From an uncultured Candidatus Saccharibacteria bacterium (lineage in GTDB: Bacteria > Patescibacteriota > Saccharimonadia > CAILAD01 > BJGX01), in NCBI GenBank assembly GCA_964552475.1, contig CAZKFZ010000003.1, positions 24,078 through 88,077 on the forward strand: DNA of 64,000 nt, given 5' to 3'. A model generated the notes under the pieces. It was not told the DNA's origin. It ran no database searches and saw only the letters and a program-made list of their open reading frames with translations. This document shows positions 42,468 through 62,879 of this stretch, one piece after another (positions within the stretch are counted from its first letter, which is position 1; every line of letters begins with the position of its first letter). The position numbers and the translations under genes are program-made.

Positions 42468-42797
42468 CGGTGTTAAATAACTACTATCTCATCGACAGGC
42501 AACCAACCCATCCAGTCGGTAGAGTGGGCGATTACCAACACGGCTTCTACGTCACCTAGAGCCACACAGTTGTTAGTGTGTAGATTGATAGTAAAGTGTG
42601 GGCCGTTATCGAAAATGCGATTTTTCGTGCGTTGACTAGCCGACTCGTGGGGTTTTAGCTCCACGACTCCTCCCTTAAACTTCAGTTGGCTTTTCACCTC
42701 TTCTCCATATTTTGGGGTGCAATAACGCTCACTATAATAACAAATATATTAATATTTGTCAATACTTTTTTAAGATGTAGCACTACAAAATGGTACA

Positions 42798-47926: not shown

Positions 47927-48048
47927 GTTGTCTCCTTATGTAGAGGTCAAGGTGCCTTCTGGGAGCGGTTCCCAACCAAAACTCTTGATTACTCTCAAGA
48001 ACTTTGGTTGGGGGAGCTTTTTTATAGGAGCTCCCAAAACCTATTAAG

Positions 48049-48291
48049 TTAGCACCTGTCTGAGTGTATGAAACAGCCACCAACTGCAGTGTCGCAGCCA
48101 CCAGGGCACTGCCTCCCAGCAGCTACTTCGCGAGCTATATAGTCATTCTCTTCTCGCTTTCGCTGGGCAGCCCGCGCGTAATCTCCGCGCGCTTCGGCAG
48201 CTTGCCACTCATAAGCTTCTGCCCTAAGTCTCGCAGCTCTGGCCTTGCCTTCTAGCTCTGCAGCTCGTGCTTCTGCTTCGTAATCGCGCAA
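48049..48291 (-). CDS. small coiled-coil protein with C-terminal Cys-rich zinc-knuckle motif
   Basis: TTG start; Ala/Arg/Glu-rich helix then 'CPGGCDTAVGGCFIHSDRC'; preceded by island leader motif copy 2. Confidence 0.4.
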   Translation of the reverse strand: MRDYEAEARAAELEGKARAARLRAEAYEWQAAEARGDYARAAQRKREENDYIAREVAAGRQCPGGCDTAVGGCFIHSDRC

Positions 48292-48568
48292 CTCTATTCC
48301 TTTGTCTAGGCACTACCGTGTATTAACGGCCTGGGACACTCCCAGCCAAAATACTCGAATGCTTTCAAGAACTTTGGTTGGGAGGGAGCCGGCTTACAAT
48401 AGCCGACTCCCTCGGTAAGACAGATCTACCAAAAGATCGCGCGCAGAGCGACGAACTCTAGATAGCTAATTAGCGCGAGTACAGCCAAAATGGTGAGGGT
48501 GGTGAGTCGCTGTGTTGTGATGGGCTTCATTGCTTTCTCCTATGATGTGTAGTGAAGGGTAGTTGAGA

Positions 48569-49093
48569 CTAGCAGCTACTGGCATGTACAAAACATCCGC
48601 CAACATCGGTGTCGCAACCGCCCTTACATTTCATGCGCCCACCTATCATCTGTTGGGTAGCTATGCGACGCCTACGCTCGGCTTCATGTGCCTCGGATCG
48701 CTGTCTTGCTTGACGGTTGTTCAGACCCGGATAGAATCCGCTGGGAGCATCAAGCCATTCTACACTCTCATAATCTATCTCTTCTTTAGGTTGATCATCG
48801 TGTTGGAAGGCTTTGCTTGTTGGCATTTTCGTAGGAATGCCCACCTTCTTCTTAGACTCTTGCGTAGTTGTTTGCGTGTTTTGCCACACAACCACTCGTC
48901 TTTTGCATACCGGGCATTTTACTGCCAGAAATTTTTCTCGCGTCACGTAGGTATCGGCTTGATCAACCTCGATCTTACTACCGCATTTTTCGCAGGTTAC
49001 TCGCTTGGGCCATTTCAAATGCTTGGTACCCGTTTCGATGATTCTCAATTTAATCTCCTTGTAGAGGTGCAAACCTGGGAACTTCCCAGCCAA
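48569..49093 (-). CDS. zinc-ribbon protein with the same C-terminal Cys-rich motif
   Basis: 'CEKCGSKIEV...CPVCKRRV' zinc ribbon; C-terminal 'CKGGCDTDVGGCFVHASSC'. The true start is probably the TTG downstream of the conserved 'CACCTCTACAAGGAG' element, not the listed ATG. Confidence 0.4.
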   Translation of the reverse strand: MAGKFPGLHLYKEIKLRIIETGTKHLKWPKRVTCEKCGSKIEVDQADTYVTREKFLAVKCPVCKRRVVVWQNTQTTTQESKKKVGIPTKMPTSKAFQHDDQPKEEIDYESVEWLDAPSGFYPGLNNRQARQRSEAHEAERRRRIATQQMIGGRMKCKGGCDTDVGGCFVHASSC

Positions 49094-49164
49094 AACTCTC
49101 GAATAATCAAGGGCTCTGGTTGTGAGGAGCTTTTAGCAGGAGCTCCTTGAAACCTGTTTAAGGT

Positions 49165-50444: not shown

Positions 50445-50720
50445 TCAGTTGATGCGACGCTCAGACTTGTTGCGAGAACCTACCGGCACCGTTGCTGAGC
50501 AGTTCGGGCAGATCACCACCGCCAGCTCCTCAGTAACCCGGTACTTTACTCGGTCTTCGTCTCGACCGTGCCCAGGGTCGGGGTCGAAGTAGCGGATGTA
50601 GCTGTGGTTCACCCAGCTAACCAAGTCTACCTTGTGGTCCACTTCAACCACCGATCTGCAGTTATGGCAGGCGTGTTGGCGTCGATCGTGGTGGGCATTC
50701 TGTTGGTGGACTATACGCAT
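50445..50720 (-). CDS. small zinc-ribbon protein (GC island)
   Basis: 'CHNC...CPNC' four-Cys arrangement; His-rich N-terminus; preceded by palindromic leader copy 4. Confidence 0.4.
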   Translation of the reverse strand: MRIVHQQNAHHDRRQHACHNCRSVVEVDHKVDLVSWVNHSYIRYFDPDPGHGRDEDRVKYRVTEELAVVICPNCSATVPVGSRNKSERRIN

Positions 50721-50854
50721 GTTGCTCTCCCTGGTGTCGAGGTGCTACACTCCGCTTGCGCGGGTGCCTAGGAACGGTTCCCAGCCAAAACTCTCGATAG
50801 TTCAAGGGCTTTGGTTGGGAGGGAGTTGGTTTTTAGGCCAACCCCCTCAGGAGG

Positions 50855-53555: not shown

Positions 53556-54410
53556 ATGATAAAAGCTTCAGATACCGACAAGCGTCTCAAAAACTCCATA
53601 TTAGATTTGCTAGAGTATCTGGCTAAGTATAAGACGTCGCTGAGTGATAGCGAAATCCTACATTTATTACCGGTAAGAGCCAGTAGTGCTGGAGTGAGCT
53701 CTCATTTAAGAAATTTAGTAGATGTTGGTAAGGTAAAGAAGCTCAAAGACGGAAGCTTTGGCATAGCCAAGCAAAAGTACCCAAGCCACCACAGACTACC
53801 TGCCAAACCAAGCAGTATTCAATTGTCTAAAAAAACCAAGCGAATTATAAGGTGGGCTAGGTTAGTACCATTTATTCAATCAGTTGCAATTGTTAGTACA
53901 GATACGCTTTCTGTGCAATCTCACGCACAGAACAACCCAAGACTAATATTTATAACTCTGCCCGGAAGAATTTATTTATCCAAGGATATTATAAGAAGGT
54001 TGTTTTATCACAATAAGGATACAAAAACCGACCCAGCAACTCAACAAACAGAATACGCCAATAGTTGCCGTGATATATTCTACTCTACAGCCGGCGTCCG
54101 TTTTAGTGAAAAAATGGGCAGTAGCGATCAAGAAAGGGTGTTGTGGTTTGCTCTTGCTAAGCCCATCTATGGTCAAACTACCTGGCAAACGGTTCTTCAA
54201 AATGACAGATATATTTTTAGTCATTTACCAAACTACCCTTGGGGAGAAAGACAAAATAAGATAAATGTAGGCATGAGTCGCTGGTTAGACAAAATAGACA
54301 ACACCCTCTACCGTAGCTACTTAAAAGAAACCGCATTATTAGGTAAATATCAAGACGCTGACTCATTTTTGCGTATTCGCCCCGATGTGTTTATTGCTAA
54401 AGAAAACTAA
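53556..54410 (+). CDS. hypothetical protein with N-terminal winged-helix-like region
   Basis: 284-aa ORF; no catalytic motif recognised. Confidence 0.35.
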   Translation: MIKASDTDKRLKNSILDLLEYLAKYKTSLSDSEILHLLPVRASSAGVSSHLRNLVDVGKVKKLKDGSFGIAKQKYPSHHRLPAKPSSIQLSKKTKRIIRWARLVPFIQSVAIVSTDTLSVQSHAQNNPRLIFITLPGRIYLSKDIIRRLFYHNKDTKTDPATQQTEYANSCRDIFYSTAGVRFSEKMGSSDQERVLWFALAKPIYGQTTWQTVLQNDRYIFSHLPNYPWGERQNKINVGMSRWLDKIDNTLYRSYLKETALLGKYQDADSFLRIRPDVFIAKEN

Positions 54411-54430
54411 ATAAATATTGTAAAAAAGTA

Positions 54431-54459
54431 TTGACACCAATGTGCTTATGTGATATTAT
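54431..54459 (+). promoter_or_regulatory. sigma70-type promoter with extended -10
   Basis: TTGACA (54431-54436), 17-nt spacer, TGaTATTAT (54451-54459). Confidence 0.6.
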
Positions 54460-54466
54460 GTATATC

Positions 54467-54975
54467 TACCTTGGCGAAAGCCTTGGTGCACCATCTACAG
54501 GTCAACCCCATATAGTTAATATTTGGTAAAGGAGACACACGTGGTCCCACCCGGCTAGTTAGCCTCATCTACGGATGGGGCACGGGATATCCCGAAAACG
54601 CATACCGCCTCACACACATGAAGAGTCCAACCCATCCAATTTAGCTAATATTCGGGGAGCCATGATCCGAATTGAGAGACTTTAGCCCTAGCGTAAGTGT
54701 TACATGAAACACAAAAACTTACCCTAGGGCGCCCCGGTTCTTGAAGCGCTTCGAGAAGTACGCGTTTTCAAGAACAACCTGCGGCGGAGCCGCCGGAGAC
54801 CGTTTGGCCACAACTACATAAATTAGTGGTTCAAACAGGGTGAGCAGTAAAGGTTTGGTAGAGATATTGCACCTACATGGTCGCAAAGACTCACCATCAC
54901 AACCAGAAAACTGTGCCCACAGTGTCTTCGGCGGCCCCCGCCGCCTCCACACCCTCTAGTGAAGAGGGTGTTTTC
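54467..54975 (+). ncRNA. candidate structured non-coding RNA of about 510 nt, identity unresolved
   Basis: Strong promoter upstream, no plus-strand ORF of 60 aa or more, GC-rich internal hairpins (e.g. GGCGGCCCCCGCCGCC), terminal hairpin CACCCTCTAGTGAAGAGGGTG plus T-run at 54949-54974. GC above the local background. Confidence 0.3.
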
Positions 54976-54989
54976 AATTACAAAAGTTC

Positions 54990-55018
54990 TTGACACAGGC
55001 TATTTACACCAGTAGAAT
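54990..55018 (+). promoter_or_regulatory. groESL promoter
   Basis: TTGACA (54990-54995), 17-nt spacer, TAGAAT (55013-55018). Confidence 0.65.
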
Positions 55019-55023
55019 ACTTA

Positions 55024-55050
55024 TTAGCACTCTAAGTATGTGAGTGCTAA
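55024..55050 (+). promoter_or_regulatory. CIRCE element (HrcA operator)
   Basis: Perfect TTAGCACTC-N9-GAGTGCTAA immediately after the -10. Confidence 0.9.
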
Positions 55051-62294: not shown

Positions 62295-62879
62295 ATGACT
62301 CTCAATCCTTCTAGAAAGATAGAGGAAATCTTAATTGTAGTAGATGTGCCCAATATGAATTGGATGCTTCGCAATGTAGTTGGTACAGATAAGCCGAGTA
62401 ATGATCAGCTTATTCAGTACGAGATTCTTAAGAAGTACTTTGAGGCGTTATTTTCCTCTGCCACAGTTACGGCAACGGCATTTATTAATGCTCGTGAAAA
62501 CAATTGGTCTTCAATGCTTGGGTGGGCCAAGGGTCTTAAAGATTCTGGCTGGAACGTATTTGTAAAGCCTAAGCTCGAAAAGACCGATATTGACGAAGCA
62601 ATTATTGAGCACATTCAAATGCATTGCGACAATCCTGCGCTAGATCTAAAGACGGTGGTAGTGGTATCGCACGACACCAAGCGATTTAGTAGCTTGCTAG
62701 AGTCTATCGCTGCTACTGGTGTAAGAGCTATGTATGTAGCCTTTACAGAACTACTAAGTCCCAAGCCTGGCCCTGGCGTAGAGGTGTTGGATATTCGGGA
62801 TATCCCGAATATTACCGCCACGCCCTTGCCAGATGAGCTTAGGTATGAAAAGCTGCCCTTAGAGGGTCGTTACATTTAA
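62295..62879 (+). CDS. NYN/LabA-like domain protein
   Basis: 'ILIVVDVPNMNWM' and 'VVVVSHDTKRFSSLLESIAATGVRAMYVA' resemble NYN (PF01936) core motifs. Confidence 0.45.
   Translation: MTLNPSRKIEEILIVVDVPNMNWMLRNVVGTDKPSNDQLIQYEILKKYFEALFSSATVTATAFINARENNWSSMLGWAKGLKDSGWNVFVKPKLEKTDIDEAIIEHIQMHCDNPALDLKTVVVVSHDTKRFSSLLESIAATGVRAMYVAFTELLSPKPGPGVEVLDIRDIPNITATPLPDELRYEKLPLEGRYI

Follow-up and report, generated by a model that had tools for sequence, protein, structure and literature searches.

A candidate family of large structured non-coding RNAs beside groESL in one clade of Candidatus Saccharibacteria

In the 64-kb stretch of DNA analysed here (the window), originating from an uncultured bacterium of Candidatus Saccharibacteria, a gene for a 284-amino-acid (aa) protein is followed by groES and groEL, and between them lies a transcription unit of about 510 nucleotides (nt). 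The original prediction took this unit for a large structured non-coding RNA (ncRNA) with a promoter and a terminator of its own, a view borne out by synteny in several lineages, by covariation, by the z-scores of the fold and by the absence of a conserved open reading frame (ORF). The window RNA is counted as the shortest known member of a family of ornate structured RNAs of 0.5–1 kb, so far found only in one clade of Candidatus Saccharibacteria.

The strong promoter, the intrinsic terminator and the separate control of groESL that had been claimed are all present (Table 1). The promoter has 11 of 12 consensus matches; the motif TTGAC(A/T) occurs in the promoters of all RNA lineages (A–G, see below) and the TG-extended -10 element in all but lineage G. 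The terminator—a 9-bp GC-rich stem with a 5-nt loop, then UUUU—has equivalents in lineages A–F, none being clear in lineage G. Concerning a possible leader of groESL, the terminator and the separate groES promoter with its perfect CIRCE element (TTAGCACTC-N9-GAGTGCTAA) break the transcript before groES, the arrangement of own promoter and CIRCE being also kept in the relatives. As predicted, the plus strand of the unit contains no ORF of 60 aa or more, the longest one having 39 aa (77 aa on the minus strand), and its GC content exceeds that of the window (0.51 vs 0.406), in which the RNA is single-copy. A 16-nt block (AAAAAGTATTGACA..) including the -35 box is identical in the RNA promoter and in a promoter at 42772–42757 on the minus strand, the latter lying ahead of a 74-aa ORF (42473–42697, minus strand; fold z = -0.5), which is followed by five clustered tRNA genes; the shared block suggests an expression of the kind seen for stable RNAs.

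The scan of genomes with the window GroEL revealed a single close relative, the Candidatus Saccharibacteria metagenome-assembled genome L005 (89% identity; related loci are given by L numbers), the remaining matches being from other phyla. Relatives were gathered by exact-protein look-ups of the window GroES, the 284-aa protein and homologues of these. Their conserved gene order consists of a TrmB-like regulator, phosphoglucomutase (PGM), a 281–303-aa protein without a Pfam family (the 28x-aa protein), groES and groEL, and in all lineages an ORF-less stretch of 0.5–1.4 kb adjoins the 28x-aa gene. The syntenic RNA, 500–980 nt long, is present in at least seven Saccharibacteria lineages (GroEL identities to the window were computed for A, B, C and E): lineage A with the window, L001, L004 and L085 (RNA of 505–510 nt, GroEL 99%), B with L087 and L090 (814–926 nt, 97%), C with L213, L233, L214 and L218 (726–874 nt, 91%), D with L234–L236 (about 700 nt), E with L223, L226, L232, L228 and L242 (about 790 nt, 85%), F with L237 and L239 (about 925 nt), and G with L248, L254, L255 and L258 (about 980 nt), the RNA of the last lineage being located upstream, not downstream, of the 303-aa gene. 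No comparable gap upstream of groES was seen at the distant loci L031, L029, L051 and L067 of the Candidate Phyla Radiation (CPR).

Sequence similarity between the lineages is limited, BLAST joining lineages A and B only at the 5' end and at one internal island. When the third and fourth islands of lineages A and B alone were made into a covariance model, the RNAs of lineage E were recovered at the syntenic position, with E-values of 1.3e-4, 4e-3 and 0.02 in 167 kb and nothing else of note. Lineage D shares little beyond an island resembling that of lineage F (AGGAGGGG...AGCCCUGUCUG), and a global alignment across the lineages (E-INS-i) contains too much noise for deriving a structure of the whole family. 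Scanning of metagenomes with the pattern CCACCCGGC..GGGGNACGGG..CCCG gave at least 120 matches, GC-rich and due to chance; among viral contigs, three island patterns gave two chance matches, the one inspected sitting within a 409-aa ORF, and no true homologues.

Two further stretches should be mentioned here. L005 has, at 2145–2596, a 420-nt promoter-to-terminator unit between the PGM gene and a 296-aa gene (fold z = -8.0), with just 212 nt upstream of its groES; the unit has no family islands and no Rfam match at E ≤ 10, and may be either a member diverged beyond recognition or a separate, unrelated RNA. Lineage E carries a second ORF-less, GC-rich stretch directly after the PGM gene (L223, 1118–1470; L242, 1617–1970), which in L223 ends in a terminator and has a fold z of -9.0 and no Rfam match at E ≤ 1; it may be a second structured RNA or an element of a 3' untranslated region.

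The prediction of a structured RNA with GC-rich hairpins agrees with the fold of the plus strand, the minimum free energy of which is -188.6 kcal/mol vs -142.9 ± 5.7 kcal/mol for dinucleotide shuffles (z = -7.98), the opposite strand being weaker (z = -4.15). The lineage A consensus (RNAalifold, three sequences) comprises 135 pairs, with 97% of the pair cells holding standard base pairs. Of 37 predicted tetraloops, 12 are of the GNRA type. The main elements of the fold are listed in Table 1; the sequences of lineages B and C show counterparts of the long-range helix H11.

Table 1 Features of the RNA unit and its surroundings, in positions of the window
Feature	Position	Strand	Remarks
Gene of the 284-aa protein	53556–54410	+	always next to the RNA; N-terminal winged helix
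Promoter region	54421–54459	+	A-rich block upstream of -35; -35 TTGACA (54431–54436), 17-nt spacer ending in TG, TG-extended -10 TATTAT (54454–54459)
RNA	54466–54975	+	about 510 nt; start inferred from the -10 element
H1, 5' hairpin	54467–54488	+	GAAA (GNRA) tetraloop, 2x2 internal loop; counterparts in lineages B (identical), E (GUGA or GAGA loop) and F (GAAA)
Island I3	54528–54558	+	Shine-Dalgarno (SD)-like AAAGGAG, GUGG..CCAC, then CCACCCGGCUAG
H5 and H6	54562–54596	+	H5 GCCUCAUC/GAUGGGGC, H6 CGGG-AUAU-CCCG; conserved in A, B and E; region of island I4 (GGGGYACGGG-N4-CCCGA)
C/A-rich linker	54597–54652	+	predicted unpaired; most variable part inside lineage A
Domain H7–H9	54653–54736	+	CGGGG/CCCCG closes around islands I5 and I6; H9 with 3 compensatory and 4 one-sided changes across 3 sequences
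H10 hairpin	54737–54775	+	GUUCUUGAAGCGC / GCGUUUUCAAGAAC; one compensatory change, U-A to C-G
Second domain	54781–54944	+	closed by the 19-bp long-range helix H11 (54781–54800 with 54924–54944); holds H12–H16
Island I7	54792–54801	+	GCCGGAGACC
Island I8	54899–54911	+	ACAACCAGAAAAC; conserved in A, E and F
Intrinsic terminator	54949–54975	+	stem and loop 54949–54971, then UUUU; end of unit at 54975
groES promoter	54990–55018		TTGACA-17-TAGAAT
CIRCE	55024–55050		perfect
groES	from 55151		followed by groEL; both 3' of the RNA unit

The islands are collinear across the lineages. The 5' GNRA hairpin comes first, then UUGAYGAAG pairing with a near-3' CUUCGUC (helix P1), AAGGRG, a short hairpin, CCRCCCGRC..AGCC, island I4 and ..AUGAUC.. 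(I5); the 3' part has UAGCCYU, a hairpin with a GAAAAA(C/G)AAU loop and AGGGCGCC, then GCCRGAGACC and ACAAC(G)CCCAGAAA, the core islands also including ACAACGCCCAGAAA after GCCRGAGACC. Lineages B, E and F also have I5 and the long hairpin I6 (UAGCCCUAG...CUAGGGCGCC), and CCRCCCGRC is shared by A, B, C, E and G, AAGGRG being the sole island common to all seven lineages. Position eight of helix P1 (GACGAAG-N-AAA/UUU-N'-CUUCGUC) pairs differently in three lineages: A-U in C, U-A in E and C-G in G. Two resemblances elsewhere in the window should be added: the palindromic hairpin UCGGGAUAUCCCGAAUAU (62790–62813), matching the H6 hairpin CGGGAUAUCCCGAA, is probably a bidirectional terminator with a chance likeness, and the similarity of I3 to positions 42660–42700 lies inside the 74-aa ORF mentioned above and was judged to be chance.

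Comparison of orthologous regions from the related genomes revealed compensatory changes above controls in six lineages. In lineage A, 10 pairs have changed on both sides vs 3.7 ± 1.5 in shuffles (a number reached in 0 of 500) and 0–1 in slid controls; lineages B, C, E, F and G have 10, 19, 10, 11 and 12 such pairs (slid controls 0–4), giving 72 for the six lineages, and these counts support a conserved structure without proving it, because the small alignments (2–4 sequences per lineage) in which the pairs were counted also served to predict the structures. G-U pairs occupy 8–13% of the pair cells, which fits the plus strand. The lineage A RNA is 86–88% identical (window vs L001 and L085) and the third codon positions of the flanking genes only 62–83%, which points to purifying selection on the RNA in this lineage. 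The RNA thus combines the two general hallmarks of structured ncRNAs, compensatory substitutions and a stability above that of shuffled sequences. A protein gene is not indicated, since sequences with 98% identity differ two-fold in the length of their longest open frame (189 vs 98 aa on the minus strand of L213 and L233), and 1- and 2-nt indels, not multiples of three, are scattered throughout the RNA.

No catalogued RNA family matches the unit. At the gathering score, Rfam 15 finds tRNAs only in the window, and at E ≤ 10 neither the L005 RNA nor segments of 0.6–1.2 kb taken from four lineages (A, B, E and G) give a relevant match; 6S, SRP, OLE, raiA, GOLLD, ROOL, HEARO and group I/II introns (Rfam 15) are not matched, and there is just noise of 12–24 bits to unrelated models of microRNAs and small RNAs. 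The earlier failure to match transfer-messenger RNA (tmRNA) is confirmed, as ARAGORN finds none in the window or in seven related loci and Rfam gives no match. A sponge of the CsrB/RsmZ type is not indicated either, since no k-mer recurs with a z above about 5 or resembles GGA.

Among the large RNAs already described, several resemble the new one in part. OLE RNA (RF01071; about 610 nt, from extremophilic Firmicutes), the biochemical function of which was long unknown, is likewise large and multi-domain, abundant as is predicted for the new RNA, forms its own transcription unit, has a narrow range and lies adjacent to a lineage-specific protein gene (oapA there, a gene for a winged helix-turn-helix (wHTH)/nucleotidyltransferase-like protein here); it has, however, no sequence or structure match to the new RNA in Rfam and is highly conserved, whereas the new RNA swaps domains between strains, and the candidate partner of the latter is not a membrane protein. 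GOLLD and ROOL (RF01998, RF03087) share with it the ornate build of 0.5–0.8 kb, the many GNRA loops, the long-range helices and the presence of variable parts (the 5' half in GOLLD), but they usually occur in prophages or beside tRNAs, while the new RNA is chromosomal and found between housekeeping genes with no tRNA nearby, and without an Rfam match or a viral homologue. The Staphylococcus RNAIII (514 nt), a regulatory RNA of dual function that encodes delta-haemolysin, is similar in its length of about 500 nt, its many hairpins, its fast sequence divergence and its small SD-led ORF inside a structured RNA; in the new RNA, however, this ORF has 5–13 codons and is not kept in all lineages, there is no quorum-sensing context, and the repeated C-rich loops for pairing to target SD sequences are missing.

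The variability of the RNA takes the form of replaced domains. The genes flanking the RNA in the lineage C strains L213, L214 and L218 are 97–100% identical (third codon positions 93–100%), yet their RNAs are just 85–90% identical over 82–96% of the length, entire hairpins being replaced and closing helices kept although GroEL is 100% identical. L234 of lineage D and L213 of lineage C have 92% identity in the upstream flank, as far as the -35 box, and 83% in the downstream one from the groES promoter on, whereas the 718-nt RNA body in between is unalignable, with sharp boundaries at the promoter and the terminator. Compared with lineage A, the 5' region of lineage B holds about 400 nt of inserted sequence.

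From its sequence, the unit would rather probably be an independently transcribed gene for an abundant, trans-acting structured ncRNA of an undescribed family. Against this, the original prediction had also raised a divergent RNase P RNA, having itself failed to find the RNase P conserved regions. This identity, here judged highly improbable, would draw on the size range, the GNRA loops, the variable peripheral helices and the strong promoter common to both (RF00010, RF00011), on the terminal helix joining the 5' and 3' parts as P1 does in lineages C, E and G, and on a string CCACCCGG..AGCC resembling CCACCCGGAGCAAGGCC, a string in RNase P RNA from E. coli. Of the two RNase P-like strings pointed out previously, ACCCGGCUAG is indeed part of a conserved island, while AGGGUGAGCAGUAAAGG is unconserved even in the nearest relatives. 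The P4 pseudoknot was represented by the consensus strings of conserved regions CR-I (GAGGAAAGUCC) and CR-V (ACAGAANNCGGCUUA), and a fuzzy search allowing up to two and three mismatches, respectively, found neither in any of the lineages (11 sequences). These P4-forming sequences were sought directly because CPR RNase P RNAs often fall below the Rfam thresholds, 10 of 35 complete CPR genomes having needed lowered ones (Lui et al. 2021, PMC8172020); extended or missing helices are reported there as well. Even at E ≤ 10, however, neither RNaseP_bact_a/b nor the archaeal models match the RNAs of four lineages or that of L005, and the new RNA is far more variable than RNase P RNA, also between near-identical strains: it swaps domains beside an identical GroEL, has bodies unalignable between lineages C and D, is missing at the L256 site and reaches 980 nt. 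Such variability is incompatible with a housekeeping ribozyme. The lack of an Rfam match, of a tmRNA and of the RNase P signatures thus supports the ncRNA reading and not the RNase P one. The claim that no SD-led small ORF exists proved wrong, since AAGGAG is followed after 6 nt by GUG GUC CCA CCC GGC UAG (54541–54558), five codons. It is unlikely, but worth bearing in mind, that the RNA has a dual function and engages ribosomes, this island being a real initiation site of a tiny ORF with stalling codons; the candidate peptides are MVPPG*, MVPPGN*, MVLPPGLVATP* and MIPPDCSSP*, and the stall would sense elongation factor P (EF-P) or proline, or hold the ribosome on the RNA. PPG and PPD are strong EF-P-dependent stalling motifs, and four lineages (A, B, C and E) keep CCR CCC GRC (Pro-Pro-Gly/Asp) in frame; the spacing from AAGGAG to GUG is 5–6 nt in lineages A and B and 4 nt in C, the ORF lengths differ by +3 nt, and five of nine substitutions are synonymous ones at third codon positions (GUC/GUU, CCA/CCG, UAG/UAA, UCA/UCG). 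Those numbers are, however, too small for significance, the spacing shrinks to 0 nt in lineage E and 0–2 nt in F, lineage G has no start codon, and lineages D and F encode unrelated peptides. Moreover, GUGG/CCAC may form a hairpin in which CCA to CCG keeps the pair (U-A to U-G), and nothing obvious is left downstream to regulate because the terminator lies 400 nt further on.

The exchange of hairpin domains beside nearly identical flanks in lineage C, the sharply bounded replacement between L234 and L213, the location of the RNA on either side of the 28x-aa gene and its lack in L256 could alternatively point to a hypervariable cassette under diversifying selection, serving in phage defence or in the interaction with the host bacterium, or to a mobile or selfish element at an intergenic site. 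This is nonetheless rather unlikely: the window holds a single copy, the flanks contain no transposase, integrase, reverse transcriptase or repeats, the neighbouring protein has no PADLOC match, no true homologues are found on viral contigs, and the selection seen in lineage A is purifying, not diversifying. Still less can be said for a role in cis, as leader or regulator of the neighbouring groESL (heat shock) or wHTH/nucleotidyltransferase-like gene; the RNA is always adjacent to these genes, and in lineage G there is no clear terminator before the 303-aa gene about 300 nt downstream, but the terminator of lineages A–F is strong, groES keeps its own promoter and CIRCE, the position of the RNA relative to both genes varies between lineages, and L256 keeps both without the RNA, making such a role very improbable. 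Finally, a decaying pseudogene or functionless spacer might be suspected from the rapid divergence between lineages and from the spurious ORFs of 114, 181 and 229 aa that gene callers put in L001, L254 and L231, respectively; those open frames are, however, not common to near-identical sequences, and the consensus promoter in all lineages, the terminator in A–F, a GC content 10 points above that of the genome, a z of -8 with an excess of compensatory changes and a conservation in lineage A above that of synonymous sites leave it hardly any probability.

The favoured explanation, a trans-acting structured RNA of a new family, may be put as follows. The strong sigma-70 promoter with its extended -10 element and the intrinsic terminator delimit the RNA ahead of the separately regulated groESL operon, and the predicted fold has several domains, which are shut by helices of long range and rich in GNRA tetraloops. 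The conserved collinear islands would be the working core that binds a partner, so that the RNA would act as a ribonucleoprotein, while the peripheral hairpins between them, freely replaced, would be scaffolding or under diversifying selection. Because the most conserved island mimics a ribosome-binding site, the partner guessed at first would be the translation apparatus or the 30S subunit; the second guess is the adjacent wHTH/nucleotidyltransferase-like protein.

It should be pointed out that, in addition to the small alignments mentioned above and the unalignable RNA body between the L234 and L213 flanks, several observations weigh against this explanation. The partner of the RNA is conjectural, the structure predictions leave no more than about half of the SD-like island unpaired (an unremarkable accessibility), and replacement of the RNA cassette brings no change in the neighbouring protein, the stretch of 92% identity upstream in L234 and L213 including the 3' part of the 28x-aa gene. 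The family is known only from contigs reached via GroES and the 28x-aa protein. Strain L256, with the GroES of lineage G, has no RNA at this site, its order being HSP20, 397 nt, the 281-aa gene and groES; taken together with the almost unalignable body of lineage D, this means that the RNA may be dispensable or mobile. Upstream in L256 (1–3010), genes for type IV secretion system pilins, a phosphoribosyltransferase and HSP20 replace PGM and the RNA.

The 284-aa protein is a possible candidate for the RNA partner. It has no match in Pfam, NCBIfam, PADLOC, PHROGs or the PDB, and its AlphaFold model has an overall pLDDT of 53, with the N-terminal winged helix being confident; a few of its 227 distant relatives of about 300 aa show sub-threshold matches to Pol-beta nucleotidyltransferases. 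The protein evolves fast, with 30–52% identity where GroEL has 85–97%, and its gene remains adjacent to the RNA in lineage G, in which the order of the two is switched.

Elsewhere in the window, an element of about 65–75 nt consisting of TCCCA(A/G)CCAAAA...TCAAGRRCTTTGGTTGGGAGGGAG and then a GC hairpin occurs in four copies (47969–48034, 48340–48404, 49083–49146 and 50778–50841), and GGGAGC..GCTCCCTGAAACCTG in three (49125, 49510 and 50406). Both repeats are situated in two GC-rich gaps (0.52–0.53) with only small minus-strand ORFs (80 aa at 48049–48291 and 91 aa at 50445–50720). They may be a leader or terminator present in several copies, or else a small mobile repeat.

With regard to significance, neither Rfam 15 nor the literature searched contains a report of this RNA family or of any large structured RNA of this kind for the CPR. 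To our knowledge, only a few large structured bacterial RNAs are without a known function—OLE, GOLLD, ROOL, raiA and HEARO. RNAs of this sort have opened new biology, including RNA-only cages and RNA-guided nucleases. The distribution of the new RNA is so far narrow, but 0.5–1 kb of non-coding sequence, predicted to be highly transcribed, is costly to keep in CPR genomes, because these have only about 1 Mb. The replacement of modules, or of the whole body, beside nearly identical genes offers a test case for the evolution of large RNAs, and the pattern may mark an interaction with a phage, the host bacterium or the ribosome. A bolder possibility, in our view decidedly doubtful, is that of a new ornate RNA class peculiar to episymbiotic CPR bacteria, in which a conserved core mimicking the ribosome-binding site, with AAGGRG, GUG and the Pro-Pro-Gly/Asp codons, would capture or stall ribosomes and hairpin cassettes would be exchanged under diversifying selection; if true, this ribosome-capturing, cassette-exchanging RNA would be a hypervariable locus at the level of RNA without a known counterpart.

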